From: Promethearchaeota archaeon
GTDB taxonomy: Archaea > Asgardarchaeota > Lokiarchaeia > Sigyniarchaeales > SOKP01
Reading direction: 5' to 3'
DNA length: 32,179 bases
Assembly: GCA_016930515.1 (NCBI GenBank)
Contig: JAFGGO010000066.1
Location: forward strand, 1-32,179
Shown: positions 3,907 through 32,179 of the stretch, piece by piece
Position numbering within the stretch: the first letter of the stretch is position 1
How the letters are laid out: each line of letters opens with the position of its first letter
Made by a program: the position numbers and the translations under genes
The notes under the pieces: generated by a model
What the model saw: only the letters and a program-made list of their open reading frames with translations
Told to the model about the DNA's origin: nothing
Database searches by the model: none

Positions 3907-4450
3907 TTTATCACATATTCCATATTTTTAACTTATTTTTCTCAATTAATTCAGTTAAAATATTGATTTTCAATTTTTTTTAGATCGTAAAAAATCGATT
4001 GTTATTTCATACCACATTCAAGAGGGTATTTAAAAGGATCTAGAACTATTTTGAAATTTTGATATCTCAAAATTAATTGGATGCAAGAAATTCCTTTCCA
4101 AATTCTAATCTTAGGCACAGAATCTTTTCAGCTTATTATTTGGTTGATTAGAAGGGCTTTTGTTCATATATCTTTGAGTAAGTTTAGTACTTTCTTTAAA
4201 TCGAATATAAATGAATCCATGAAGATAACCTGCTAATTAATTTTTTATTGTTTCATGGAAGGAGTATCGAAACTTGGAAGTTATTCATAGAAAATTTTTA
4301 AAAAAGATCTGATTTGTAAAAATTCTAATTATTTGAGATTAAAAAAAACTCCATTTAACTTATTTTATAGAAATTCTTAAAAATCCTTAATCTTATTATT
4401 ATTTCACCTACTAGTAACTAACATATCAAATACATACGGATTGCTTTGAC

Positions 4451-18553: not shown

Positions 18554-18568
18554 TTTTTTATTTAAATA
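18554..18568 (+). promoter_or_regulatory. T-tract/TATA promoter element TTTTTTATTTAAATA
   Basis: About 50 nt before ATG 18618; shared motif class (see findings). Confidence 0.55.
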
Positions 18569-18617
18569 AAATAAAAATACTTAATGTTAACTAAATCGCT
18601 AAGCGTGAAAAAATTCA

Positions 18618-19313
18618 ATGGTAGATAGGCACGATTATCCCTTTTTTGGCCAAACCACGGGAATGATAGTATCCAGCAATTCAAGATCCGAACCTTATAT
18701 GTTTCTTAAATGTATAAAAAAGAAACAAGATGGATCGTGGGAAAAGGCATCTTTAGGAGAAGGCAAGACTGTAAAATTTTCCTTAGAAGAAATGATGGAG
18801 ATCGTGGATCTTTTCAAGGGAAACGCTGATAAATGGAGTGGATTTCACGATTTCAACGGAGAAAAAACCCAGATTTCCATCAATTGGGAAAATGGGGAAA
18901 AGAAGAATGTATGGGTAAAAATTAATTCATACGCAAGGAGATTTCAAGGCGGACAGATGGGCGTGTTCAGGGATTTATTGGCACACATCCTCGATGAAAA
19001 GATCGCTCACGCAACCGTCATGAGCGTTCAAAGAGAACGAATTAAGGAAGAGCTTACCATAGATTCAGATTCGAGTCCAATAAACACCAAGATTAAATCT
19101 AATAACGATTTGGTTGATCAGAACGACGAAAAGATAAAAGTCAAAGGTAAGATAAATGGTCAGACGGATAAAGCGCTCCTAATCGTGTTTTTAAATGGGC
19201 AAGAATCGTGGATTCCTAAGTCCTCAATAGCATCAAGATTGGAAGAGAACTCCGACGCATTTCAAGAGTTAATCGTTGATTCCTGGGTACTCAAAAAAAA
19301 TAAAGTTATATGA
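18618..19313 (+). CDS. Putative Whirly/PC4-like ssDNA-binding protein with C-terminal small beta-barrel
   Basis: Order YPFFG..MFL..GSWEK..KFSLEEM..GFHD..VFRDLL resembles the Whirly pattern; C-terminal TDKALLI..WIPKS..DSWVL domain. Pattern recognition only. Confidence 0.55.
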   Translation: MVDRHDYPFFGQTTGMIVSSNSRSEPYMFLKCIKKKQDGSWEKASLGEGKTVKFSLEEMMEIVDLFKGNADKWSGFHDFNGEKTQISINWENGEKKNVWVKINSYARRFQGGQMGVFRDLLAHILDEKIAHATVMSVQRERIKEELTIDSDSSPINTKIKSNNDLVDQNDEKIKVKGKINGQTDKALLIVFLNGQESWIPKSSIASRLEENSDAFQELIVDSWVLKKNKVI

Positions 19314-19367
19314 TCCTCTTTTTCATTTTTGATAGTATATTATCACCATTATTTCTTTTACAATTCA

Positions 19368-19382
19368 TTTTTTATTTAAATT
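19368..19382 (+). promoter_or_regulatory. T-tract/TATA promoter element TTTTTTATTTAAATT
   Basis: About 50 nt before ATG 19433. Confidence 0.5.
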
Positions 19383-19432
19383 AAACCAAATGAAAATAAG
19401 GCTATAGTATATGAAATATATTTTAATGCATC

Positions 19433-20680
19433 ATGGCCGTTCAAAGCTATCTATCGAATTTATTTGTTTCCCGCTCGAAATTACTTTCCGATTTCACGCA
19501 AAATTATCTCGATTCCTTCAATTTTAGAGAAAACATCAATCTTCACTCAGGAACGCAATTTAGATTCACGATTCGGGAAAGAACAAAACCTAAGAAAATC
19601 AATCCCATTATCAGAAAAGCGAGAGCTAGCGATGTAGAAGATATAGTATACACATACAAGGATGTCTACGAGGGAACACATCCATACAGGGAGATGGAGG
19701 ATCCTACTCACATTCTTAAAATGATTGAAAAGGAAAATGTTGAATGGTTGATATTTGAGCACCCCAATACTGGCGAAATCTGTGGTTGTTTCACCCTAGT
19801 CCTCGATTTTAAAGATATGAAGGGTTATACCAGAGGTTTCGTCGTGAAGAAAAAATTTGAAGGTAAGTTGGATGTGATAAAAGCGTTCTTAGGGTCTTTT
19901 ATCGCAATGTTTGCAAAATACGAAGGCAAGATATTTAGGTGGTATGGTGAAAGCAGGACGGCGCATTCGAAGTCACAGTACTGCATGAGGCCAAGCGGGT
20001 TTAAACCTATTGCATTTCTCCCCAATAAGGATGTGTTTTTCCATAAGGTCGAATCCGACATTTTAATCATAAGTTACGACCAGAAGGCTATCTCGGACAT
20101 GAGATCCAAGGAAATACCTACAATAATACCAGAAGTCGTTGATTGCTTTCGCTATTCTTCAAGACGGTACGCATTAGGAAAATATAAAACATATCATTCT
20201 CCTTTATTCCTTGATCAAAAAAGACTAAATTCCATTTCTAATAAAATAATTAATCGTTACAGCAAGGATAGGTTTGGATACCAAAAATACAATATCCACA
20301 TAAAGGAAACGGAATCATATTTGTCGTTCTTATACACGCCATCAGTTCAGAGCATTGAAAAGGTCGAATATCATGCGGAAAGCATTGAGGATCTACATGT
20401 TTTAGTAAGAGAATTGATAAACGAAGCATTTCGCTTGCAAGTTAGATATATGGAAGTCTTCGTGAGCGCGTATATGCCTCAAGAACAATTGGTATTTTAT
20501 GAATTGGGATTGATTCCTCGAGGGTACTTACCAAGCTGGAAATATGATATTGTGACTTCCAATTTTAAAGATTACATCCTATTTAATAGATTTCGAGGGC
20601 AAGTTGCTAAAGACATTCAGTTATTAGACGAGGGAAAGGAATTACTTGATTGTTTAAAGTTTACTCTTCATAGAATTTAG
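19433..20680 (+). CDS. Tandem GNAT-fold protein
   Basis: IRKARASDVEDI..YTRGFVVKKKFEGK..SGFKPIAFLP, and a second fold ending FYELGLIPRGYLP. Confidence 0.7.
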   Translation: MAVQSYLSNLFVSRSKLLSDFTQNYLDSFNFRENINLHSGTQFRFTIRERTKPKKINPIIRKARASDVEDIVYTYKDVYEGTHPYREMEDPTHILKMIEKENVEWLIFEHPNTGEICGCFTLVLDFKDMKGYTRGFVVKKKFEGKLDVIKAFLGSFIAMFAKYEGKIFRWYGESRTAHSKSQYCMRPSGFKPIAFLPNKDVFFHKVESDILIISYDQKAISDMRSKEIPTIIPEVVDCFRYSSRRYALGKYKTYHSPLFLDQKRLNSISNKIINRYSKDRFGYQKYNIHIKETESYLSFLYTPSVQSIEKVEYHAESIEDLHVLVRELINEAFRLQVRYMEVFVSAYMPQEQLVFYELGLIPRGYLPSWKYDIVTSNFKDYILFNRFRGQVAKDIQLLDEGKELLDCLKFTLHRI

Positions 20681-20863
20681 GCATAGAACACGATGATTAC
20701 GAATCGAACGGATTTGGACAAAACGACAAAATGGTGAAAGCAACAAACCTAATAATAGGCAATTAGCAAAATCTCGTTGCTTTTGATGATGATTGGTATA
20801 AAATTAATTTGTAATAGTGCTTTATAAGTATAAGAAAAGAACATCAAAAAAGGTATTCAATCC

Positions 20864-22444
20864 TTAAATTCTAAAGAAAGCTTTTCCGTCCATTATCCAA
20901 AAAGGAAGTATGTCCTTCTTCACCAATTCGTCGATGTTCTGGTTAAAGCGCTTGGAAAGAAAATTATTGGAGATAATGAGTGCTTTTTGGTCTCGCGCAT
21001 ATTTAAGTAAGAGTTCTTCGACAGGAATTCCATCGGGAGCTTGTAAAATGAGATTTTGTTTCACGCATTTTAAATAGGCATCTGGCAAATCAATACAGTT
21101 GGCGAGAGAGGCATCTGATACGATGACTATCTTCTTTGCACCCAAGTCTCTTAAAGCGTCGTAAACGAGTTTGATGTTTACGAGTTGCGCTCCACCGTTT
21201 TTTGAAAGAGAATGATAAGCCACATTCGTACCGTCAACGACAAACACCCTACCTTTTAAGGTTAATTTTTGTTTTTTCCTAAAATATAGCTCGTTTTGAA
21301 GAGAATTTTCAAATACTTTTTGCTCTACTCGATTAAGCGTTTCTAAGAACCACTTCTTAAAAGACACAAAATCAGAAAGAGGCGATTCGATCCCGTGCTT
21401 CTTTTGTGGTTGTATTCTTTTAATTGAGTTCGAAACACTAGTGTTATCTCGAATTAATTTCGAAATTAAGGCATCTGGAACCTTTAAGTAAGTAAAGATT
21501 TTTTTAAAATCCTCATTATCGGTTTCTGACAACTCAAATTTCGTGTAATTCATCGCAACCCAACTGGCAAGGAAGTCTTCGGGAATTCCGTCCTTCCAAT
21601 GATGATTTCTCAAGTAATCATACAATTTTTGAGGATCGTAGAGTTGTTCCAACTCTAAATTCGCAGGATTAACCTTATCGTGTCGATAATCGTGGAGAAC
21701 TTGAACGAATTCCCGGGCAATTTGCTTGTTAATATTGATAACGAACTCGTATTCCTTGACGAAGGTCTTTAGTTTATTGAATCTATTTTGATGTGAGTTG
21801 GAAAACTTACCTCCTTTCGTTTCGATCTGGGGTAGTTCTATATCGAAATAGAGTTCCACGAACTTTAAGATCTTGTTCCAATATTTGCGAGGATATTCCG
21901 CTAATATCTCGTTTAAAAAGCCAAGCTCTCCCGTATCTACATACTCCGCGAATATTGAACCTGCAACGGTTTTAATTTTCTGGATTTTATCAAGCAGGAT
22001 ATTCTGATTTCTCGATGTTTGTATTAAAAGATTTTCAAACTCGAGATCCAATTCAGAAATATTGTAATTCAGAAACGAATTGTTTTTCTTGTTAAAAATA
22101 ACATACTTATTGTCGTTTATCTGGAGATGAACGATCTCGTTTACATTTAAAATACATCTTATTCCTTTTACTTGGACAATCTGGTTTAACATTTCCTCTC
22201 TGAGATTATAGATCAAGAACAAGGTCGGATTTTGGGAATAAGAATTGTTTAGTTCGCTCTCAACTATCTCCTTGAGGTTGTGCAATGCTGTTGATTCGAA
22301 ATCAATGACATTGTGTCCAACGGTAAAGGTTTCTAAAACATGAAGGTGCTTCAAATCGATATAAGGCAACAAAATAAGGTTTTTTTGCTGAAAAAATAAA
22401 ATATTCAGAAATTCTGGTCTGATTAGATCAATACCTGCGTCCGT
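20864..22444 (-). CDS. Large protein with C-terminal NYN/PIN (Zc3h12a-like) domain, probably degenerate; track start 22372, proposed ACG start 22444
   Basis: VFVVDGTNVAY..VSDASL..PVEELLLKYA..IISNNF; GGAGGTG lies 7 nt before the in-frame ACG. Confidence 0.8.
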   Translation of the reverse strand, partial: TDAGIDLIRPEFLNILFFQQKNLILLPYIDLKHLHVLETFTVGHNVIDFESTALHNLKEIVESELNNSYSQNPTLFLIYNLREEMLNQIVQVKGIRCILNVNEIVHLQINDNKYVIFNKKNNSFLNYNISELDLEFENLLIQTSRNQNILLDKIQKIKTVAGSIFAEYVDTGELGFLNEILAEYPRKYWNKILKFVELYFDIELPQIETKGGKFSNSHQNRFNKLKTFVKEYEFVININKQIAREFVQVLHDYRHDKVNPANLELEQLYDPQKLYDYLRNHHWKDGIPEDFLASWVAMNYTKFELSETDNEDFKKIFTYLKVPDALISKLIRDNTSVSNSIKRIQPQKKHGIESPLSDFVSFKKWFLETLNRVEQKVFENSLQNELYFRKKQKLTLKGRVFVVDGTNVAYHSLSKNGGAQLVNIKLVYDALRDLGAKKIVIVSDASLANCIDLPDAYLKCVKQNLILQAPDGIPVEELLLKYARDQKALIISNNFLSKRFNQNIDELVKKDILPFWIMDGKAFFRI

Positions 22445-22476
22445 TGTTTAACACCTCCAATAATATAAGAACAAAT

Positions 22477-23202
22477 TTATAGTAATTCATACTTGAAGTA
22501 GTTAAAAATAACCTGTACCATCAAGTCTTCGAAACACGGCACGACATTATCACCTTCTAGGGCCTTTGAAGGATATAAAACTCTCGTGTCGTCTGAGTAG
22601 GTTTCTTCAGATGGAAGTCCCATATCTTTTTTAAAATCACCAATTGGTATTGCGTTGTCCAAGTCGCGCTTATTGAGCTGAACAACATATGGAATTTGTT
22701 TTGGACCCGCAAAACTTTTTAATTCCCTGAAACTGCGCTTGTTTTGTTCCATTTTCTCTAGATCTGAATCCGCAACAAATACAATACCATCAGCACCATC
22801 AAGTACATATTCCCTCGTAGAAAGGAATCTTTCTTGACCCGTACATGTGACTACTTGAACCACGATTTCGTACAATTTTTGGTCGATTTCAAAATCAAAG
22901 GATAAGAAAAGTGAATCTTGCCAAAGCGTTCGACCGTCGGTAGTTTCGATGGAATATCCTTGACTTATTTCGGTCATGCTAAACTTTTCTTTCAAGCGAA
23001 AAAAGTTCGTGGTCTTTCCAGACTCCCCTGGCCCCCAATACACGATTTTAAATTGTATCACGCCGTCTTTTCTCCTGTTAGCCTTGCCAGAGTTCTGACT
23101 TGGCGCTGATTCTTCCTTTTTGTTTGATGTATTGATTATCATTTGATCATCATCTCGAGAGGATCTAGGTAGCACTACCAATCTTATCCTTGAAAATCTC
23201 AT
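22477..23202 (-). CDS. mglA: MglA-family small GTPase (true start probably GTG 23175 or ATG 23142)
   Basis: KIVYWGPGESGKTTN, TTDGRTLWQD, TCTGQ, VLDGADGIVFVADS, NKRDL. Confidence 0.9.
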   Translation of the reverse strand: MRFSRIRLVVLPRSSRDDDQMIINTSNKKEESAPSQNSGKANRRKDGVIQFKIVYWGPGESGKTTNFFRLKEKFSMTEISQGYSIETTDGRTLWQDSLFLSFDFEIDQKLYEIVVQVVTCTGQERFLSTREYVLDGADGIVFVADSDLEKMEQNKRSFRELKSFAGPKQIPYVVQLNKRDLDNAIPIGDFKKDMGLPSEETYSDDTRVLYPSKALEGDNVVPCFEDLMVQVIFNYFKYELL

Positions 23203-23713
23203 TCTTCAGGTTTTTAATATGTTCTTTAAGCTGAAGCTCGTTCATCTTGAGAGTATGTTTGATATTGTTGCTTTTTTGAATCTCTTGCTTGATCAAAGGA
23301 GCAAATTTTCCCATTTGGAGTACGACTACTCCAATGTTGACTTCCCTATCCGTCAGGAGCACGATAAGGATCTCGCGCTTTCCCTTCTTTTCGAGAGCAA
23401 CGGGACCAAGCGAGCGCACGAACAATTGCATGTTATTGTAAATCAAGCTGGCTCGCTCCAAGTTGTCGGTTTCAAAAAAGTCTTGTCCCTGTCTCGCAAT
23501 ACCATACAACGCAGCGCCTATCGAACCCAAGTCCCAGTAATTTAATTTTTTTTCAAACCGAGAATCTACGGCTATGATTTTCGCGTCTTGGTCTATCGCA
23601 ATTAACCCGTATATATACCCTTTTCGAGTCAAGCGCCCGTAATTAGTCCTGATATCGCTTAAAAGCTCACTTATCTTGTTTTGAAATAACATCTTTGGGA
23701 TTGTTCCATTCAT
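23165..23713 (-). CDS. mglB: Roadblock/LC7 (MglB-like) protein
   Basis: IAIDQDAKII..LGSIGAALYGIARQ..ILIVLL..VNIGVV roadblock pattern; immediately upstream of mglA. Confidence 0.75.
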   Translation of the reverse strand: MNGTIPKMLFQNKISELLSDIRTNYGRLTRKGYIYGLIAIDQDAKIIAVDSRFEKKLNYWDLGSIGAALYGIARQGQDFFETDNLERASLIYNNMQLFVRSLGPVALEKKGKREILIVLLTDREVNIGVVVLQMGKFAPLIKQEIQKSNNIKHTLKMNELQLKEHIKNLKNEIFKDKIGSAT

Positions 23714-23755
23714 TGTCGTTCAATCATTTTTTTTACAAAGATAGAACGATAGAAG

Positions 23756-23770
23756 TATTTAAAGGAAAAA
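23756..23770 (-). promoter_or_regulatory. T-tract/TATA promoter element TTTTTCCTTTAAATA
   Basis: About 43 nt before the mglB ATG; followed by CTTC, as in the radA promoter. Confidence 0.55.
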
Positions 23771-23781
23771 TTTAGGGATCT

Positions 23782-24699
23782 TTATTGAATCTTGTTTATA
23801 ACGGTTTTTTTCGTAATTTTTATTTGATTTAGTCCAGTGTATTGATTTTTCTTTACCAAAACATTAGAAAGAGAAATTTTATCCCCTATATCTAACATTT
23901 TAAAGCATTCTACAGCACGAATCCCCCAAACTACGACTTCGATGTGCTTATCGTTGTTGCATAAAAAGATGCTAAGTAAGAAAGATTTATCGCCGCTTTT
24001 CAAGTTTTTTTCGCCAAATTTCTTGTTTTCCACGATGCCGATAATTTTTTCGTAAAATCCTTCGCTTTCAAATAATCGAGTTATTTTTGGAGCGGCCTGA
24101 ATATATTTCTGCCTTAAATAATTTTTGTTTATTAAGGGCGGAATTTCGTTCTTTTTCACATTTTGGGGCGCTATCTCTAAGAATCCTTTTTTCTTTACCT
24201 GTAGCTCCAAGATTCCTTTTGTGCCTTTCTTAGCGTAGGCACCAATAATTCGCACGATCTCGTTAGGTTTAATATAATCATTACGCATTATTTCAACTTG
24301 CCTGTCCCATAATGTTACTTTTATTTTACCTGTCTTATCTCTCAAGACGAATGATCCTACCATGCCAATCGTGCCGTCCTTTCTCGTAAATTCCTTGATA
24401 CCATAGATGGTTTCAATCCTACCCGAGATTACAACATTGTCAGTATTTTCTGAAAGATCAGCAATATTTGACTCGAAATCGCAATAATCCACATTTTCGT
24501 GCATATATTCCTCTATTTCGAAATAGGTTTCAATAAGGTGTAAGTTTAGGCCTCTTTCCTTGGCAATCACGAACAATAGGGCTTCTGTGGTCAAATAACC
24601 CCCATAATCCCGTTCTTTTTTTTGCATTTCATTTTTAATCTCAGATTCAGTGAGACCTGAGTTGAGAAGAGCGTCATACAATTCGTCAACATTAGACAT
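23782..24699 (-). CDS. Archaeal RPA/SSB-like protein (N-terminal DUF2240-like helical domain + two OB folds)
   Basis: GGYLTTEALLFVIAKERG; EFTRKDGTIGMVGSFVLRDKTGKIKVTLWD; second OB fold IEVVVWG..LDIGDKISLSNV. Confidence 0.88.
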   Translation of the reverse strand: MSNVDELYDALLNSGLTESEIKNEMQKKERDYGGYLTTEALLFVIAKERGLNLHLIETYFEIEEYMHENVDYCDFESNIADLSENTDNVVISGRIETIYGIKEFTRKDGTIGMVGSFVLRDKTGKIKVTLWDRQVEIMRNDYIKPNEIVRIIGAYAKKGTKGILELQVKKKGFLEIAPQNVKKNEIPPLINKNYLRQKYIQAAPKITRLFESEGFYEKIIGIVENKKFGEKNLKSGDKSFLLSIFLCNNDKHIEVVVWGIRAVECFKMLDIGDKISLSNVLVKKNQYTGLNQIKITKKTVINKIQ

Positions 24700-24723
24700 T
24701 CGTATTGCCTCGATTCGTGTGTT

Positions 24724-25317
24724 TTAATCTTTTCCATATATTTTCAAGATGTTCCGCGTTCGGTGAAAAGCATAAGCTGAACAGTTCGCCAAGTATCTCA
24801 AGTTTTTCTGCAAGATCGGCTTGTAATGGTTCGATTTCAGATCCTTCTTGTCGGTAACAAATATGATCACGGCAATCTGTGTGGAAATGCGTGGCCAAAA
24901 TACCACTTTTCTCAATTTATCGTGCAATATAGTAAGATTTATTCTTGCTCGCTTGTAATCGAATACTGGGGCAAAACGATGGACTAAATGCAGGTATGCT
25001 CGTACTTTTCGGTTTAAGGATTTGGGGTCATGTGCCCGCCGAAGTACGATCCTGTTTAAAAATTCGTGTAGAATTAAAAGGTTTTTCAAAAATTGATTTA
25101 CTATATTCCAAACCGTTGAACGAGGAATGTTTAAGAGGTTAGAAATCTGAAGCACCTCACTTGGAGGTAATTGTTCACGCAGTTGCCCTTTATGAGTTAA
25201 GGAGACCAATCTCACAAGAATGTTAAGAACTAAAGCCCTAGTTTCTTTTGAAGGGACAAGTACTCTATATTTTGTTGTTCTAATAGTTTCGTTAGACATT
25301 TTCGTTAACATGTTCAT
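24724..25317 (-). CDS. Basic HTH protein with C-terminal TFB/cyclin-like repeat
   Basis: QISNLLNIPRSTVWNIV HTH; TQIAVIIFV..LQKNLRYLANCSAYAFHRTRNIL resembles the TFB C-terminal repeat (xxAAAxYIA..TQxEIAxxxxxTExTIRxRY). Inference. Confidence 0.55.
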   Translation of the reverse strand: MNMLTKMSNETIRTTKYRVLVPSKETRALVLNILVRLVSLTHKGQLREQLPPSEVLQISNLLNIPRSTVWNIVNQFLKNLLILHEFLNRIVLRRAHDPKSLNRKVRAYLHLVHRFAPVFDYKRARINLTILHDKLRKVVFWPRISTQIAVIIFVTDKKDLKSNHYKPILQKNLRYLANCSAYAFHRTRNILKIYGKD

Positions 25318-25367
25318 TTTTCCGTCCTTAAAACATCTATTATTCGTAATTTAACTTAGAGCCCATA

Positions 25368-25382
25368 TATTTAAATAAAAAA
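25368..25382 (-). promoter_or_regulatory. T-tract/TATA promoter element TTTTTTATTTAAATA
   Basis: About 51 nt before ATG 25317. Confidence 0.55.
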
Positions 25383-25455
25383 TGAGTTATTTTTTTCACC
25401 CTTTCTATTAACTCGTTTGCCTGCATTATCGTTGTAAAAATTGTTATTCAGAAAT

Positions 25456-26547
25456 TCAATCAGTTAAATAAATATCTAGTGATTTTTGTGAGGTTACATG
25501 CGTTTTAATAGCGCTTTTGAAATTAGTCAAGCATTTATAATAGCTTCTCGATAAGATTGACATGGCTTTTTCCACCCGTTCTCGGTTAAGATGGTGGTTT
25601 TGGCATAGGAATGAAACCACTCGAGAAGTATCTGGTGCGTTCCAATGAATGTTTCCGGTTAGATTAACAATATCTGGAAAAAGAAATATCTTCCTTATAT
25701 TTTTTATTACTTCATGAGTAAGATAAGTGAAATCATATTTTTTGGAGTATATCTGAATAATTTTCTCTAAATTTCTGTTTTTTTTTACTAGCGATAAAGA
25801 CCTTTTTGCTCCCAGGTTTTGAACACCTGAAAAATAGTCATTTCCAACAAGAATGGTCATATCCACCAGTTGAAACCTATCGATACCCCACACGCGCAAA
25901 TTTTGGTTAAGATCCACAAGTTGAGTATTTACTTTTTCATAAACCCATTTTCCACGCTGTTTTCTCCGTCTCGATTTCGAGAGGTTTTGAACGGTACGAG
26001 GACACCCGAAAACGAGAATATCATAATCTTGGGAAACGGCAAAATTTGCCACATTCGAGGAAACTAAGTGTGCACATTGAGCTTCGGCAGACGCAGGCGA
26101 TTCGATTATCGGCACGCCCATTGCTCCTAATAATAGCCTCGATTCATTCAAAACATTTGTCCACAAATATTCCTTGCTTAAGGCAATATTGTGTGCTGCT
26201 TTTAGATCTCTCCTCTCAATTGCCTTTTGATAAAGTTTCTCTGAAAACAGAAAATCTGCAAGTAGGTCTTTGGTGATCTTCCTCTTGAGTTCTGAATCTC
26301 GGCCATCAAAGCAAAAAATAGGTAAAATGCCATTGGAATAGTAAAAACTTACCCTGTATAATAAACCATAGAGGTGAGAAATGATTTTCTGCGTGCGATC
26401 CGTTATATAAGCAGCATTTTCTATCCTACTTGAAAATCCTATCAGGGCAGCGAGAATATTCGAAGCATCTACTGCAACGATGCTGTTCATTAGATCGTTC
26501 GTTTTAATGATGTTCGATTTAACGATTTCCCTTATTTTTACTCCCAT
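25456..26547 (-). CDS. fen: Flap endonuclease FEN1/XPG-family paralog with PIP box
   Basis: MGV start, VAVDASN, SHLYGLLYR, FCFDG, AEAQ, SQDYD, GNDY..G.GAK, C-terminal QKSLDIYL. Confidence 0.9.
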   Translation of the reverse strand: MGVKIREIVKSNIIKTNDLMNSIVAVDASNILAALIGFSSRIENAAYITDRTQKIISHLYGLLYRVSFYYSNGILPIFCFDGRDSELKRKITKDLLADFLFSEKLYQKAIERRDLKAAHNIALSKEYLWTNVLNESRLLLGAMGVPIIESPASAEAQCAHLVSSNVANFAVSQDYDILVFGCPRTVQNLSKSRRRKQRGKWVYEKVNTQLVDLNQNLRVWGIDRFQLVDMTILVGNDYFSGVQNLGAKRSLSLVKKNRNLEKIIQIYSKKYDFTYLTHEVIKNIRKIFLFPDIVNLTGNIHWNAPDTSRVVSFLCQNHHLNRERVEKAMSILSRSYYKCLTNFKSAIKTHVTSQKSLDIYLTD

Positions 26548-26569
26548 AAATGCGTACTATAATTCAATG

Positions 26570-26585
26570 AATTTAAAGGAAAAAA
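26570..26585 (-). promoter_or_regulatory. T-tract/TATA promoter element TTTTTTCCTTTAAATT
   Basis: About 23 nt before ATG 26547 (leaderless spacing). Confidence 0.6.
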
Positions 26586-26680
26586 GAGAATTAATCAAAA
26601 TGTTCTGAGAACAATAAATCATTTTTCTTTTATCAATTTGGGTTCAGTTTACAGAGATTTTAGCTCTCTTAGGATTTCAT

Positions 26681-26869
26681 TTACTTAAGTCCGTTTGCGA
26701 AGGCAAGTTTCTCTTCGATCGAGAGTATTTCCTCGTCATCAAATAGGGATAAATCTTTTTTTTCGAATTCCAATTGGCACACAAGGCAATCAAATGATTT
26801 TTCGTAAATCGCGAGAGCTTTTCCCTGACAACGAGGGCAATGTAAGTCTATTTGCTCTTCTTTTCTCAT
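26681..26869 (-). CDS. Small Zn-ribbon protein
   Basis: CPRC..CLVC..EFEK..LSIEEK; paralog of 27064-27345. Confidence 0.75.
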   Translation of the reverse strand: MRKEEQIDLHCPRCQGKALAIYEKSFDCLVCQLEFEKKDLSLFDDEEILSIEEKLAFANGLK

Positions 26870-27063
26870 GGTATACCGAATTCGCCAGTTAGATTGAATA
26901 ATTGAGATTTTATATATAACAAATAGACAGTATCCTTATTAAATGCACCTGCATGTTTAGAATGCTTATTATCTTTAAGGATTCTTTGATATATAGGACG
27001 AATTAAGACATCATATATTTTCATAGGTCCTCGTACCTCTATTAGTATTATATAGATTCTAAT

Positions 27064-27345
27064 TTAATTCCTGCTATGCTCTATATCTTCAAGGCAAAAC
27101 CGTATTAAAAGGGCCACGATATTTGATTTCTCTTCCTCGGCAAGCATATTTTCAGGGTCATAAATCGAAAGCTCACTTTTATTAAACTCGAGGGAGCAAT
27201 TTAAACAGTCTAGACTCGTATCGAGGTCGAATAAACTAGAGCTATGGCAACGAGGGCATGTTTCTGATTCAATATCGTATGAAACAGTCTTAGAATATCT
27301 CAGTCGTGCTCTAGTGCTCCTTTTTTTTTCCTGATTTTCTTGCAT
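27064..27345 (-). CDS. Small Zn-ribbon protein (paralog of 26681-26869)
   Basis: CPRC..CLNC..EFNK..LAEEEK. Confidence 0.75.
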   Translation of the reverse strand: MQENQEKKRSTRARLRYSKTVSYDIESETCPRCHSSSLFDLDTSLDCLNCSLEFNKSELSIYDPENMLAEEEKSNIVALLIRFCLEDIEHSRN

Positions 27346-27392
27346 ATTTCCGCACTCTTCTTTTGATCTTGTTGGTTGATGATAAGTTGTTA

Positions 27393-27442
27393 GTTTAAAA
27401 ATAAAAAACGCTCTCGCTCGAAAAGGGTTTTTTCTTTATATA
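27393..27442. promoter_or_regulatory. Back-to-back T-tract/TATA elements of a divergent pair
   Basis: Minus strand: TTTTTTATTTTTAAAC (27408-27393, variant). Plus strand: TTTTTTCTTTATATA (27428-27442). Confidence 0.5.
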
Positions 27443-27485
27443 GGTTCGATATCAAAGAATTTAAAGCACAAATAATTTCGAGTAA

Positions 27486-27866
27486 GTGAAAATGACAAGA
27501 AACGATAGCGACATAATCATCATCAAGGACAAAAAAAGTTCGTTCAAGGGAGCATATTGGGTGTTGTTTGCACTCCTTTTATTCGTTGCGATTTATGTGC
27601 CGTTTTTTGGAACGAACCTCAGGTATCAAACGAGCGCTGTCTTAAAGACCGTTTTTAACACAATCGGGACTATTTGTCTAGTAGGAGGAGGCATTCTAAT
27701 TGCGTTTGGAATAATATCCATTTTTCTAAAGGGCACTAGAGGACTTGCAATGATGTTGATCGGTGTGTTAGCCCTGTGGATCGGATCCTGGCTGACAGGT
27801 ACTCCCTTCTTATTTGAATTATTCGGGTTGGGGGCAGATGCCAGCGAATCGACAGGATATCATTAA
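27486..27866 (+). CDS. Small 3-TM membrane protein
   Basis: Three hydrophobic Gly-rich helices. Confidence 0.8.
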   Translation: MKMTRNDSDIIIIKDKKSSFKGAYWVLFALLLFVAIYVPFFGTNLRYQTSAVLKTVFNTIGTICLVGGGILIAFGIISIFLKGTRGLAMMLIGVLALWIGSWLTGTPFLFELFGLGADASESTGYH

Positions 27867-28114
27867 ATTCTCCTTTTTATCTTTCATTGAATTGAGTCTA
27901 AATATTTAAATTTATTATTCATTTATTGATTAAATTATTCAACATTCATGCTAAATTATTTTCAAATTTATGGTGGAATTAACCGTTCAATCTATTTTAA
28001 TAAGCTGCAAACCAATTTATTCAGAGTGAAGAGTTCTTTTCGGATCAGAAATAAGTTCGTGTTTAGACCCTTGAGCCCATTTTCAAAAAATATCCTGCGA
28101 ATTTAATGCCTTCG

Positions 28115-28336
28115 TCATATATTAAGGTGAAAATAATTGAATCCCGTGTATAATCCGCACAACGATATTAGTGCAATGCAGAGTATCATGACGGAAATCA
28201 GACTCATTCGCAATCGCTTGGTGCCAACGAGAAGGAACACGAAGCAGACTACGAGCCCCAATACGCCCACGATCGATCCAAGTGCTATTAAGTATTCAAT
28301 ACCATTTTCCATACTATCGAAGTAATCGAACATCAT
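28115..28336 (-). CDS. Small 2-TM helical-hairpin membrane protein (pilin-like architecture)
   Basis: IALGSIVGVLGLVVCFVFLLVG-TKRLR-MSLISVMILCIALISLCG. Confidence 0.75.
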   Translation of the reverse strand: MMFDYFDSMENGIEYLIALGSIVGVLGLVVCFVFLLVGTKRLRMSLISVMILCIALISLCGLYTGFNYFHLNI

Positions 28337-28360
28337 GATGTTTGAAAGATGACCCCCTTG

Positions 28361-28421
28361 TTTATAAAGAAAAAAAAACTCAGAAGTTCCGTTTTTAATA
28401 GGGCGATTTTTTCTTTAAATA
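28361..28421. promoter_or_regulatory. Back-to-back T-tract/TATA elements of a divergent pair
   Basis: Minus strand: T9-C-TTTATAAA (28378-28361), about 25 nt before ATG 28336. Plus strand: T6-C-TTTAAATA (28407-28421), about 50 nt before ATG 28471. Confidence 0.6.
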
Positions 28422-28470
28422 AAATCGCTCGAGAGTTTATTCAAACCATTTCATAAAAAAGTGGAAAAAT

Positions 28471-28788
28471 ATGAAAAAATTAGAAGAAATAGGTACTTGT
28501 CCAAAGTGTGACTTTTCGATTTTTTCGTACAAGACTACCCAGTACAAGCGATTTGCGAAGTGTTCTAATTGTGGAACCTCGTATTCTTTGCCAAAAAGGG
28601 GTAAATTGTTGAATTCCGCCCTAACATGCCCTATCAGGAATTTTCCTATACTTATCGTGGATAGGAACGAGGGAAGGGCATTTTTCTGGGCAGATCAGCC
28701 GTGCTTTAATTGCGTGCATTACGATAAATGCGAGCCAATTAGTGAACTCGTTTCCGAGTTCAAGGAATTAGAGGTGTACGGTTATTAA
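28471..28788 (+). CDS. Standalone topoisomerase-IA C-terminal-type zinc-ribbon protein
   Basis: IGTCPKC..KRFAKCSNCGTSYSLPKRGKL..CPI..FPIL..CFNC resembles archaeal TopA C-terminal zf-C4 repeats. Confidence 0.7.
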   Translation: MKKLEEIGTCPKCDFSIFSYKTTQYKRFAKCSNCGTSYSLPKRGKLLNSALTCPIRNFPILIVDRNEGRAFFWADQPCFNCVHYDKCEPISELVSEFKELEVYGY

Positions 28789-28807
28789 CGCTCAGAAGAA
28801 AGCTTCT

Positions 28808-29812
28808 ATGGTCATTATATTTTTTTTAATGTTTGTTATTTCTTTTGCCGTTCGATTAAATCAATGTGAACCAACCGCACTAATAGGTTTTGATAACGAG
28901 TTTGGAGAGCTTCGAACGAGTGAAGAAATTCTAATTGATAAGGTCTACGAGTTTACAACAGATAACCCAGTTAAAAAATTCGAAGACTTGGAGATGATTG
29001 CTGAATATCGTTATTTTTTATATTTCAAGATGGTAACTCCTCATCAGTGCAATTTAATAATTTCTATAATTGATCCAAATGGAACAACATACGACGCTTT
29101 TAACGACTCCAATTTTAATCAAGAGGAGGGTTTGCGGAGCGTTCCATTTGGAGTAGCTATTACTGGAGGGCACGACTTGTATTTTGAAGTTAACGCTTCG
29201 TACAATGTTAATGTCTATATAAGGATAGAACGAGAAATAAAATGTCTTTATGATGTTTTCTCCTCACAAGCCTCAGGAAATGTGATTTTGTATGGAGTGC
29301 ATAAATTCGAAAACGCACTTATTGACACGCAAAATGTGACTCTCCAATCCGATACCGAATACGCGATTTATCTGGCGCGAGTTTCTCCCATTTCCACTGC
29401 GATTGTTGAAAATCAAGTGAAGTTTAATTATTCGCTAACGGATATTGAACGTCAGACCGTTTTCGAGCTTAATTGGAAGAACCTTGCTCTTGCTCCAATC
29501 GGCGAGGTAACAAAATATAGCTTTGGGACCGCCAATGGTGGTCAATACAAATGCAATTTAAATGTAAAGTGCGAATATAATCCCGTGAATATTGCGTTTG
29601 CAATTGTATACGATCACGAAATTAGCAACGAGCTAGAGGAAAATCAAACGGAGATCATACCGAGCGATGGTGCCAGTCAGAATGTTCTTGTGAGTCTTTC
29701 TCCCCTGCAAGTTGTAATATTCGTAGGTGCGTTTGGTGTAATAGTATTCGGGGCGATAGTGGGCGTAGCAAGGAGCAGAAAAAAAAGAAATACAACAATC
29801 AGTAAATTTTAA
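28808..29812 (+). CDS. Exported protein with two beta-sandwich repeats and C-terminal TM anchor
   Basis: N-terminal hydrophobic segment; internal repeat (YxxY..V(T/S)P..FGxAxxG..VN(V/I)); C-terminal TM followed by RSRKKR. Confidence 0.8.
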   Translation: MVIIFFLMFVISFAVRLNQCEPTALIGFDNEFGELRTSEEILIDKVYEFTTDNPVKKFEDLEMIAEYRYFLYFKMVTPHQCNLIISIIDPNGTTYDAFNDSNFNQEEGLRSVPFGVAITGGHDLYFEVNASYNVNVYIRIEREIKCLYDVFSSQASGNVILYGVHKFENALIDTQNVTLQSDTEYAIYLARVSPISTAIVENQVKFNYSLTDIERQTVFELNWKNLALAPIGEVTKYSFGTANGGQYKCNLNVKCEYNPVNIAFAIVYDHEISNELEENQTEIIPSDGASQNVLVSLSPLQVVIFVGAFGVIVFGAIVGVARSRKKRNTTISKF

Positions 29813-30001
29813 CCTTTTAATTCTTTATTCACGCTTCTTTTAACGATAATACTATTGAAAGCTTGAAAAAATAGCCTGCTTTCTAGTTTAATAATAATTA
29901 CATTTAAGAAACCAAAAAAGGATTTATGTATTAGTTAAAAATCGTTTTTGTATCTATCTTAATAAAAAATAGAATCTTTAAAAAAATAAAAAAAATAAAA
30001 A

Positions 30002-31237
30002 TTAGATATTCGTGAGGAGCCGGGCGTTTTCTTGCATTTCTAATATTTTTTTTGAAGACAAACCAGAAATTTTACCGGCGAGATCATCAGGGTTTGCCGA
30101 GAGTAGGGATTCGATGGATGTGATTCCCTGTTCGGCAAGATTTTCTGCAGTACCTTTTCCAATACCTTTCACATTTACCAATGGAATGGTCGTGAGTTTA
30201 GCCTCACTAAGTTCATCTCCTTCCGAATCCTCGTACAATGTTTCGATCTCGAATCCATCGATGTCCTCTCTATCATTATCCGGAATATCGCCTTGTTCGC
30301 TGTCCGATACACCCGCAGAGGTAATATAAAACTCGCATTCTTCGGGCGGAAGATCGGGAGCGTCAACGATGATAGCCTTGCGCTTAAGGGAATTATTCGA
30401 CGAAAATCCCTTTGTCTTGAACATCACTCGAAAATGACATCCATGAGCCACGATATTTCCTCCAATGGCATCATCAGCAGCAAACATCCCCATCATCTTG
30501 GTTGCGACCTGATTGGTGAGCAGTATGGCACAATTATATGTTTCAGCTATTCTCGATAAGGCATGGATCATGTTATTGAGAACTTGCTGGCGTCTTGCGA
30601 GCATACCAATACCCATATACTCGTTTCTCATCAAGGCCATCAAGCTATCGACCACTAGAAGTCTCACACCCCGAGATTTGCACAAGTTCTCTGCTTTTTG
30701 GATCATTTGCGCTTGGTGGTCGGAACTATAGATGCGCGTGTGGTACAAGCGAGTAAGCACGATCTTGGGATCGAGACCGAACCGCTTGGCGATCCGCATT
30801 ATCTTGTCCTTTGAAAAGGTGTTCTCCGTGTCGATATAAGCAACCGCGCAGTCAAGGCCTCCTTTAGATAGTGGAAGCTGTGCCGAAACGGCTATGGTGT
30901 GAGCCAGGTTGGTTTTACCCGATTTGAATGGACCAAACACTTCGGTGAGCTTGCCAGTCTGAACACCCCCACCTAGAATTTTATTTAAAGCTTGAGAGCC
31001 CGTCGTGATGATTTCCACATGTTCGTTGATGCTCTCTGCTGCCACGAATTCCGTCATTCCTAAAGCGTTTCTGGCGTTCCAAACGAGCTTTTTAGCGGTT
31101 TTATCGCCAAGACCATCTATATCGGCAATCACATTCAAGGAAGACATTGCAAGCGCTTCTGCCGTGCTCACCCCGCTTTCTTGAAGGAGCTTGATCTGAC
31201 GCGCGTTGATCCCCTTGATTTGACTTAATTCTGACAT
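30002..31237 (-). CDS. radA: RadA/Rad51-family recombinase paralog with extra C-terminal HhH domain
   Basis: N-terminal HhH, FVAA (FxxA), Walker A GPFKSGKT, YIDTENTF, LLVVDS, TNQV, IGGNIVAH; acidic linker, then VKGIGKGTAENL..GITSIESLL. Confidence 0.93.
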   Translation of the reverse strand: MSELSQIKGINARQIKLLQESGVSTAEALAMSSLNVIADIDGLGDKTAKKLVWNARNALGMTEFVAAESINEHVEIITTGSQALNKILGGGVQTGKLTEVFGPFKSGKTNLAHTIAVSAQLPLSKGGLDCAVAYIDTENTFSKDKIMRIAKRFGLDPKIVLTRLYHTRIYSSDHQAQMIQKAENLCKSRGVRLLVVDSLMALMRNEYMGIGMLARRQQVLNNMIHALSRIAETYNCAILLTNQVATKMMGMFAADDAIGGNIVAHGCHFRVMFKTKGFSSNNSLKRKAIIVDAPDLPPEECEFYITSAGVSDSEQGDIPDNDREDIDGFEIETLYEDSEGDELSEAKLTTIPLVNVKGIGKGTAENLAEQGITSIESLLSANPDDLAGKISGLSSKKILEMQENARLLTNI

Positions 31238-31302
31238 TCGTGTTTTACCTTTGTCGTAATTTAATTTTCAACTGAATTTGTATATTCAAGGTAAAACGGA
31301 AG

Positions 31303-31318
31303 TATTTAAAGAAAAAAA
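31303..31318 (-). promoter_or_regulatory. T-tract/TATA promoter element TTTTTTTCTTTAAATA
   Basis: About 66 nt before the radA ATG; followed by CTTC, as upstream of mglB. Confidence 0.55.
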
Positions 31319-32029: not shown

Positions 32030-32179
32030 TTAAAGTACTTTCATTTTAGATGAATATTCAACAAATTTTTGTGGTCTATGAGCAAAACCCTTATCGTCCA
32101 TGCCCCCACATTCTTGTAATATTGTTTTTAATATTGGATTTTTTCCAATTCTTAAACTCTCTAAATTAATTAGAGTCTC
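32030..32179 (-). CDS. C-terminal end of a leucine-rich-repeat protein (partial, starts outside window)
   Basis: Hand translation ETLINLESLRIGKNPILKTILQECGGMDDKGFAHRPQKFVEYSSKMKVL*; LxNLxxLxIxxNPI LRR unit. Confidence 0.7.
   Translation of the reverse strand, partial: ETLINLESLRIGKNPILKTILQECGGMDDKGFAHRPQKFVEYSSKMKVL

Follow-up and report, generated by a model that had tools for sequence, protein, structure and literature searches.

A T-run core promoter class confined to an accessory gene island in Loki-type Asgard archaea, with a divergent TFB as its candidate reader

Background

Bacterial alternative sigma factors of the extracytoplasmic function (ECF) type have cognate promoters next to their own genes. 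Among the paralogs of the archaeal initiation factor TFB, the TFB3 of the Sulfolobales is reportedly truncated. It is described as acting through its zinc ribbon and coiled coil, together with other promoter factors (PMC6101594). The canonical archaeal TFB recognition element (BRE) is juxtaposed to the TATA box and enriched in A (PMC7289017), and the Sulfolobus promoters of TFB2 and TFB1 have near-identical TATA boxes and similar BREs, and differ mainly in spacing (bioRxiv 10.64898/2026.09.06.749720). Here we describe promoters in the genome of a Promethearchaeota archaeon in which a run of T residues, separated by one or two bases from the TATA box, stands where a BRE would be expected. The window, i.e. 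the whole stretch of DNA analysed, is the entire 32,179-bp contig C116 (JAFGGO010000066.1) of this genome (G000; 4.0 Mb, 190 contigs, 35% GC), and the promoters belong to a cluster of genes in its right half, hereafter the island. An earlier reading of the DNA from its letters alone (the sequence-only reading) had listed ten such sites and proposed a separate promoter class, read by a dedicated TFB or activator. A literature search returned no paper describing an island-private T-run promoter class with a divergent TFB, and nothing usable on Asgard promoter or transcription start site maps or on BRE-contact residues.

Results

T-run promoters in the window and in the genome

All ten listed T-run sites are present (Table 1); nine match T5-9-(A/C/CC)-TTTAWA strictly and one, at 27394-27408, is a variant. 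On the minus strand the strict matches span 23758-23770, 25370-25382, 26572-26585, 28363-28378 and 31305-31318. The promoters of the radA-like gene and of the gene for a 182-aa protein have CTTTAAATACTTC exactly in common, and both divergent pairs (27394-27442 and 28361-28421) carry the motif on each strand. The three example strings that had been quoted from the left half of the window are also there; strict matches are absent from that half. TATA-to-start distances in the window are either 30-32 nt (the fen-like gene and the gene for TM73, a small membrane protein) or 50-73 nt.

We searched the whole genome, on both strands, for five or more T followed by A, C or CC and then TTTAWA. The search gave 140 matches, nine of them within 12.9 kb (18.5-31.4 kb of the window) where 0.45 were expected (Poisson P = 1.4e-9), and the enrichment of the window holds under five looser patterns. 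The only further cluster in the genome lies at 51.9-64.2 kb of another contig, C137. Intergenic matches outside the island number 66, where Markov models of order 3 and 5 lead one to expect 61-64, and T5 runs at -50 to -70 before genes occur genome-wide at 4-5% of positions, which is not above the level of A5 runs. Thus, the excess of the motif is that of the island, and the remainder is background. Genes behind the scattered matches outside the island include those for PPase, ADH, TldD, shikimate dehydrogenase and peptidase U32. We considered a genome-wide DNA-repair regulon and rejected it, as the genes that follow the 20 best-placed non-island matches are metabolic or otherwise unrelated, and the count is that of the Markov expectation. 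The genome-wide frequency of the motif favours the proposal of a separate class: the motif is rare, occurs at chance level outside the island and is not the housekeeping promoter form.

Among 238 well-placed TTTAWAWA boxes outside the island, only five are abutted by a T-run and 27 by a purine run, and TATA boxes outside the island show an A bias at -1, -3 and -5. Expectation maximization (EM) seeded with the TATA box returned a plain TATA box with no BRE or T-rich flank; the averaged flanks of all TTTAWA boxes gave noise only, and the upstream regions of 12 tRNAs, taken as a housekeeping reference, gave no clear consensus. An EM run seeded with the T-run drifted to a low-complexity T-then-A pattern found in 63% of upstream regions, and was dropped as an artefact of AT-rich DNA.

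Anatomy of the motif

A logo was built from 77 sites in 11 genomes, and it has features beyond those that the search pattern required. The length of the T-run has its mode at exactly six (37 of 63 sites), with a non-T base at -8, and the spacer base at -1 is C in 46 of 63 sites (73%) although A and G were allowed in the search; in the 77-site logo the TATA box extends to TTTAWATA. A purine is found at +13 in 96% of island sites, compared with 52% of the general TATA set, and T at +28 and A at +29 in 59% and 72%, respectively, of the 77 sites. In leaderless members from several genera, the first T of the TATA box lies 29-32 nt before the ATG. The T-A step at +28/+29 is thus the likely start site. 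This prediction from the logo and the leaderless members would give a distance of about 29 nt from the first T of the TATA box, as is usual in archaea, and would place T6-C at the BRE position. An A- or purine-rich BRE is not present next to the TATA box of island promoters, which have T at -7 to -2 and C at -1. The signature is shared among the island promoters, specific to the island and missing from other genes.

Conservation across relatives

In ten relatives, nearly all operon-first genes keep (a)T6-C-TTTAWATA, at a distance from the start codon of about 57 nt or, in the leaderless cases, about 30 nt; counts for individual genes, taken from the ten island contigs of these relatives, are given in Table 1. 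RadA-like orthologs in the taxonomic family of the window are 61-84% identical, and 16 of 18 have a strict T6-10-C(C)-TTTAWA upstream, the other two having a one-base variant of the TATA box; the motif is kept in these promoters although the flanking sequence is unalignable. Genes internal to operons yielded no strict motif in orthologs of the NYN gene (0 of 6), and no motif in those of the GTPase (0 of 4), the 334-aa protein (0 of 3), STAND (0 of 10), Hef (0 of 8) and DUF5817 (0 of 7). The gene for a divergent TFB, which is described below, likewise has the motif in none of 10 orthologs. The comparison with orthologs went in favour of the proposed class, in that the motif is kept in at least 10 genomes of several genera while its flanks are scrambled.

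A conserved island split between two contigs

The sequence-only reading had described the T-run genes as a 13-kb DNA-processing island. The cluster is real, but it is only half of the unit, the rest being on C137. In tblastn searches against the contigs of ten relatives, genes of the right half of the window and those at 50-71 kb of C137 share single contigs in the same order; single-contig islands were found in G018, G007, G006, G015, G005, G019, G020, G023 and G012. The conserved order is NYN-GTPase-182aa / RPA-197aa / FEN / TM126 / TM73 / Zn105-334aa / RadA, followed by STAND-118aa-M50 / divergent TFB / toroid-191aa-Hef-DUF5817 / 100aa / Hel308-103aa / HhH (helix-hairpin-helix) protein, and reading C137 forwards and then the window backwards reproduces it. 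The motif-bearing units of C137 are those of the HhH protein, Hel308, the Hef-like helicase operon and a large alpha-alpha-toroid protein.

At the end of the window (32080-32179), as in the final 80 bases of C137, the sequence codes for leucine-rich repeats (LRR), and the 662-aa LRR protein of C137 has at least six paralogs in the genome. No sequence overlap was found between the two contig ends. As both stop inside an LRR gene, a typical breakpoint, an LRR gene inserted between radA and the STAND operon is probably where an assembly break has split the island. Genes of the left half of the window (a HAD hydrolase, and MFS and ABC transporter genes) are absent from the island contigs of the relatives, which sets the island border near 18.5 kb; there is no tRNA gene in the window at this border. 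The best reading is that positions 18.5-32.2 kb of the window are half of a conserved accessory island of about 35 kb in Loki-type (Promethearchaeota) Asgard archaea. It contains RadA, FEN/XPG and RPA-like paralogs, Hel308, a Hef-like helicase and HhH proteins, together with a small GTPase pair, an NYN RNase, zinc ribbons and membrane proteins. The accessory nature of the island shows in the roughly one quarter of the genomes of the family that gave no match to its TFB; in some cases the island is duplicated.

A separate 7-kb contig, C164, carries a paralog of the 415-aa gene of the window (C164:3122-4369) behind T7-G-TTTAAATA, with its promoter at 4441-4449. This paralog, a second divergent TFB on C58 and a T7-C-TTTATATA at C58:46530 may together represent a second, partial copy of the island.

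A divergent TFB encoded in the island

The C137 half of the island encodes a protein whose open reading frame (ORF) has 318 aa. Its Pfam matches are below threshold and collinear (Zn_Ribbon_TF 8.7e-5, TFIIB 0.017, Cyclin_N 0.007), and a sequence search against PDB chains gave nothing significant. An AlphaFold model made with an alignment of 22 orthologs has a predicted local distance difference test score (pLDDT) of 78; in a fold search with this model the first 11 PDB hits are all chains of TFIIB, TFB or Brf, as are nearly all of the first 39, and the Pyrococcus woesei TFB core (1d3u_B) superimposes with a template modelling (TM) score of 0.80 and a root-mean-square deviation of 3.3 A. The architecture is that of a TFB, with an N-terminal zinc ribbon (four invariant Cys) followed by two cyclin folds. 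Judged by its modelled fold, the protein is a very divergent TFB.

The genome encodes nine canonical-type TFB paralogs (on C31, C48, C127, C57, C58, C89, C92, C87 and C28) and three TATA-binding proteins (TBPs; on C67, C20 and C138), a large repertoire of general factors. The helix of the C-terminal helix-turn-helix (HTH) that reads VTEVT[LIV]RxR in the nine canonical TFBs is I[RM]MST[IV]QSQ in the divergent family (here IRMSTIQSQ), and the latter form is kept unchanged or almost unchanged throughout the 22 members. The V and R that have been replaced are presumably those that contact bases in canonical structures such as 1D3U and 1C9B. The B-reader of the divergent TFB is unrecognisable, with YHRPY in place of the canonical motif. 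As to the canonical paralogs, the classical GPEWRAF B-reader occurs only in those of C31 and C48, and the other seven share an xERRAYT variant.

In most relatives the divergent TFB has 405-460 aa, with a C-terminal extension of about 100 aa that ends in a conserved KGPP. A profile match to the C58 copy runs on past stop codons, which suggests a decayed extension.

The promoter of the divergent TFB gene (C137:68268-68340 and orthologous loci) has a ccgtaaga-like sequence, TTTAAAA and, about 8 nt after the TATA box, ACTCCyaCC, which is followed by tat(a)t..ttcttag. The C-rich ACTCCyaCC element looks like an operator, and we predict that it would serve an upstream regulator of the cascade discussed below. 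Elements similar to this promoter occur elsewhere in the genome at C57:10034, C143:5852 and C86:6310.

Linkage and distribution of the divergent TFB and the island

The genes of the divergent TFB and of the RadA paralog are 2-7 kb apart in most relatives examined; in one, the distance is about 11 kb. The divergent TFB was found in 97 of 134 genomes of the family of the window, often in 2-6 copies. The next family has it in 1 of 14 genomes, and the other sampled families of the class gave no case of it. Its public relatives all come from metagenome-assembled genomes labelled Promethearchaeota or Promethearchaeia (Loki-type Asgard archaea). At 74 public loci, retrieved by the TFB alone and taken with 1.5-kb flanks, the density of the motif is 0.45 per kb, compared with 0.064 per kb genome-wide. 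The sites fall into two clusters, one on the opposite strand at -370 to -520 (the divergent M50 operon) and one on the same strand at +1190 to +1365, just past the end of the gene (the next unit). None of the 74 loci has a forward-strand site less than about 375 nt upstream of the TFB; thus, no motif is placed as the promoter of the TFB gene itself.

In three genomes of the family that are 97-99% complete (G009, G010 and G021), searches with the TFB, the RadA paralog, Hel308 and the 182-aa gene gave no match; a search for the FEN paralog, made in G009 and G010, likewise found none. Exact copies of the 13-mer in these three are isolated and no more frequent than those of a reversed-pattern control; G018, by contrast, has 12 on its island contig. 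We looked for island genes kept without the divergent TFB and found no sure case: G009, G010 and G021 are without the whole island, and G054 and G073 have fragments at contig edges.

Genes of the window

Features of the window, and the island genes beyond it for which orthologous promoters were compared, are listed in Table 1.

Table 1. Promoters and genes of the window and further genes of the island. Positions are those of the window unless a contig is named; the fourth column gives, for orthologs in relatives, those that carry the motif and its distance from the gene.
Feature	Position	Strand	Motif in orthologs	Remarks
ORF, 1302 aa	1-3906	-		Truncated by left contig end
Promoter T6-A-TTTAAATA	18554-18568	+		57 nt upstream of 231-aa gene
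231-aa protein, no family	18618-19313	+		35%-identical paralog on C65
Promoter T6-A-TTTAAATT	19368-19382	+		58 nt upstream of 415-aa gene
415-aa protein, no family	19433-20680	+	2/2; 56-58 nt	51%-identical paralog on C164
502-aa protein, C-terminal NYN ribonuclease domain	20864-22372	-		Last gene of 182aa-GTPase-NYN unit; no T-run promoter of its own
Small Arf/Ras-like GTPase	22477-23202	-		Internal operon gene
182-aa protein, no Pfam family	23165-23713	-	7/7; 56-59 nt	Operon-first gene; 60-70% identity in relatives
Promoter T5-CC-TTTAAATA	23756-23770	-		50 nt upstream of 182-aa gene
305-aa OB-fold, RPA-like single-stranded-DNA-binding protein	23782-24699	-		Second gene of 197aa-RPA unit
197-aa protein, no family	24724-25317	-	5/5; 54-89 nt	First gene of 197aa-RPA unit; weak HTH hints only
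Promoter T6-A-TTTAAATA	25368-25382	-		58 nt upstream of 197-aa gene
363-aa FEN/XPG-family nuclease paralog	25456-26547	-	3 strict and 4 weak of 7; TATA 29-31 nt before ATG	
Promoter T6-CC-TTTAAATT	26570-26585	-		FEN-like gene; TATA 30 nt before ATG, leaderless geometry
62-aa zinc-ribbon protein (Zn62)	26681-26869	-		Paralog of 93-aa protein; TATA without T-run, an exception within the island
93-aa zinc-ribbon protein	27064-27345	-		Variant T-run promoter
Variant promoter T6-A-TTTTTAAA	27394-27408	-		93-aa gene; back to back with promoter at 27428
Promoter T6-C-TTTATATA	27428-27442	+		51 nt upstream of TM126 gene
126-aa membrane protein (TM126)	27486-27866	+	4/4; 20-49 nt	
73-aa two-helix membrane protein (TM73)	28115-28336	-	3 strict and 2 weak of 5; 32-35 nt	Served by promoter 28361-28378
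Promoter T9-C-TTTATAAA	28361-28378	-		TM73; TATA 32 nt before ATG, leaderless geometry
Promoter T6-C-TTTAAATA	28407-28421	+		57 nt upstream of Zn105 gene
105-aa zinc-ribbon protein (Zn105)	28471-28788	+	7/8; 53-58 nt (one at 32)	First gene of its unit
334-aa protein, no family	28808-29812	+		Internal operon gene, no motif
411-aa RadA/Rad51-family paralog	30002-31237	-	8/10 and 2 weak; 55-75 nt	Unusual C-terminal HhH domain
Promoter T7-C-TTTAAATA	31303-31318	-		73 nt upstream of radA-like gene
LRR gene	32080-32179	-		Contig ends inside the gene
Divergent TFB, 318-aa ORF	C137:67311-68267	-	0/10	Second copy at C58:39536-40468
M50			8/8; 26-35 nt	
Toroid protein			4/4	Distance unreliable: tblastn match starts inside the gene
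103-aa protein			3/3; 28-53 nt	
HhH protein			4/4; 11-36 nt	

The gene names given by the sequence-only reading fared unevenly. The families of radA and fen are right, but the genes appear to be extra paralogs in a patchily distributed island and not the housekeeping copies: the genome has three RadA-like genes, of which the other two (on C161 and C83) are about 40% identical to that of the window, and its other XPG-family gene, on C126, is 32% identical to the FEN-like gene of the window and is possibly the housekeeping FEN1. The label "TFB-like" for the 197-aa protein found no support, as this protein has no Pfam TFB match, and "mglB" for the 182-aa protein is unverified, there being no Roadblock match and no Pfam family. 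Scans of ten island proteins with PADLOC and PHROGs identified no defence system or virus; the sole matches were at the P-loop level for a 242-aa ATPase, and to one PHROG of unknown function for the 231-aa protein.

The 62- and 93-aa zinc-ribbon proteins are 43-50% identical to each other and weakly similar to the C-terminal domain of RPA-interacting protein; their genes adjoin the RPA-like and FEN-like genes, and only the 93-aa gene has a T-run promoter. TM73 is overlooked at an ORF cut-off of 80 aa, and is kept in five relatives.

Discussion

We consider it the most probable reading, at a rough probability of 0.6, that the island has a private core-promoter class read by its own divergent TFB in a two-step cascade. 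Each transcription unit of the island would start with the private core promoter (a)TTTTTT-C-TTTAWATA, in which T6-C would fill the position where an archaeal TFB reads a normally A-rich BRE. The divergent TFB, with its zinc ribbon and both cyclin folds kept and V..R.R changed to S..Q.Q in the recognition helix, would read T6-C. The gene of this TFB would itself be under different control, so that the island would be switched on in two steps, in the style of an alternative sigma factor; the two-step part is suggested by the different promoter of the TFB gene, which has conserved elements of its own. Both the binding of the divergent TFB to the T6-C element and the condition of switching on are what we infer from sequence. 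The separate promoter class with a dedicated TFB or activator, as first proposed, is supported in so far as the motif is island-specific and conserved and a candidate reader is encoded in the island.

Several observations weigh against this reading. The assignment of T6-C to the divergent TFB draws on co-location, co-occurrence and the altered helix, and since TFB and island always co-occur, co-occurrence cannot separate a reader from a passenger. Nine other TFB paralogs and three TBPs are present, any of which could read the element. The T-run varies between 5 and 10 in length, C is at times replaced by A or G, and the Zn62 unit and two units on C137 have no strict motif. Finally, both copies of the divergent TFB in this genome are short (315-321 aa) and stop directly after the second cyclin fold, as does one copy in G023; as they are without the C-terminal extension of about 100 aa found in most relatives, they might be impaired.

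An alternative that we regard as unlikely, yet the best of those considered, is that T6-C is a real cis-element of the island read by another TFB paralog, or by an activator or repressor encoded in the island, with the divergent TFB having some other role. Candidates are not lacking, as there are the nine canonical-type TFBs, the 197-aa protein with its weak HTH hints and the zinc-ribbon proteins (three in the island, besides several conserved proteins without family), and the truncated form of the TFB copies in G000 also fits. However, the element occupies the BRE position, a single fixed base away from the TATA box, leaving little room for a second protein beside TFB and TBP. No island protein other than the divergent TFB, moreover, has a fold known to read promoters, and it is precisely the DNA-reading helix of this TFB that has been rewritten and then conserved. 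The +13 purine falls just downstream of the TATA box, a region also contacted by the TFIIB-family factor in other systems. There is a precedent for a separate element: the DNA-damage regulon of the Sulfolobales uses a hexanucleotide upstream element besides TFB3 (PMC5817253, PMC6101594).

It is distinctly improbable that the T-run is a structural or insulating element in front of promoters served by an ordinary TFB, be it a rigid poly(dA:dT) tract that excludes histones or nucleoid proteins, or an oligo-T terminator. In its favour are the role of oligo-T tracts as termination signals in archaea (PMC8716108), the presence of histones in Asgard archaea (PMC12993045), the dense packing of the island, whose intergenic spacers are short, and the somewhat variable length of the T-run. 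Against this, the run has a modal length of six with a defined boundary and mostly C before the TATA box, to which it is always fused. It is found on both strands of divergent promoters, where no transcript arrives from upstream that could be terminated: at 27394-27442 and 28361-28421, and likewise at back-to-back pairs in relatives, the T-run does not lie 3' of a gene in the same direction, as an oligo-T terminator would. A generic device should not be confined to an island, and T-runs are not enriched before genes genome-wide. The canonical A-rich BRE is missing from these promoters.

The view that the motif is a by-product of AT-rich DNA or the ordinary promoter consensus, with no special class behind it, retains a negligible probability and is refuted: the base composition of the genome, the roughly 130 matches elsewhere in it and the drift of the motif-seeded EM to a generic T-rich/A-rich pattern speak for it, but the nine matches where 0.45 were expected, a second cluster that proves to be the same island, non-island matches at Markov expectation with no positional T-run signal genome-wide, orthologous promoters that keep motif and spacing across genera, and island-free genomes at the level of the reversed-pattern control are incompatible with it.

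One may tentatively go further, at somewhat less than even odds, and propose that in the closest archaeal relatives of eukaryotes a TFIIB-family factor has changed its specificity outright from an A-rich BRE to T6-C and acts as a sigma-like selector for a self-contained accessory programme of recombination, helicase, GTPase and membrane functions. This programme might serve DNA exchange, a response to damage or a developmental response.

Significance and comparison with known systems

The alternative TFBs described before have ill-defined promoter codes, and TFB3 reportedly works beside canonical TFB without replacing it. The code of the island is crisp: a core promoter of 15 nt, conserved in at least a dozen genera, confined to some 15-20 promoters and linked to one factor with a rewritten helix. 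If the change of specificity is real, archaea would have yielded a first sharply defined "alternative BRE code", and with it a living model of the way in which TFIIB-like factors (TFIIB, Brf, Rrn7) were assigned to different classes of promoter. Sigma-like selection by a TFIIB-family protein becomes directly testable, and in the lineage most relevant to the origin of eukaryotic transcription. The spare RadA, FEN, RPA, Hel308 and Hef paralogs are flagged as a putatively co-regulated module, which annotators should not mistake for housekeeping copies.

By analogy, the island resembles the regulons of bacterial ECF-type sigma factors in having a putative dedicated initiation factor beside a small regulon with a private core promoter. 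It differs in that the protein family and the machinery are unrelated, and in that the gene of the island factor is without the private motif and shows no evident autoregulation.

The canonical archaeal core promoter, as in the TFBc-TBP-DNA complex of P. woesei (1D3U/1AIS), is matched in the TTTAWATA-type TATA box, which would lie about 26 nt before the predicted start, and in the adjoining upstream element, which would set polarity, and the island factor is like canonical TFB in its zinc ribbon and two cyclin folds, with the TM score of 0.80 to 1d3u_B noted above. The island promoters differ in having T6-C instead of the A-rich BRE (PMC7289017) and an extra conserved purine at +13, and the island factor differs in its rewritten recognition helix and B-reader.

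The TFB3 system of the Sulfolobales is similar in that a TFB paralog serves DNA-transaction and membrane genes (PMC6101594, PMC6101591) that share a cis-motif (PMC5817253). The Sulfolobus hexanucleotide described there lies upstream of the core promoter (PMC5817253), whereas the island motif replaces the BRE; the island paralog, in addition, is full-length with both cyclin folds, and its targets are clustered beside the gene of the factor. In the cell-cycle regulon of Sulfolobus TFB2 (bioRxiv 10.64898/2026.09.06.749720) and in the haloarchaeal TFB/TBP families (PMC7289017), alternative general factors partition promoters much as is proposed here. In the island, unlike in the TFB2 regulon, the sequence class of the BRE is itself distinct and sharply defined.

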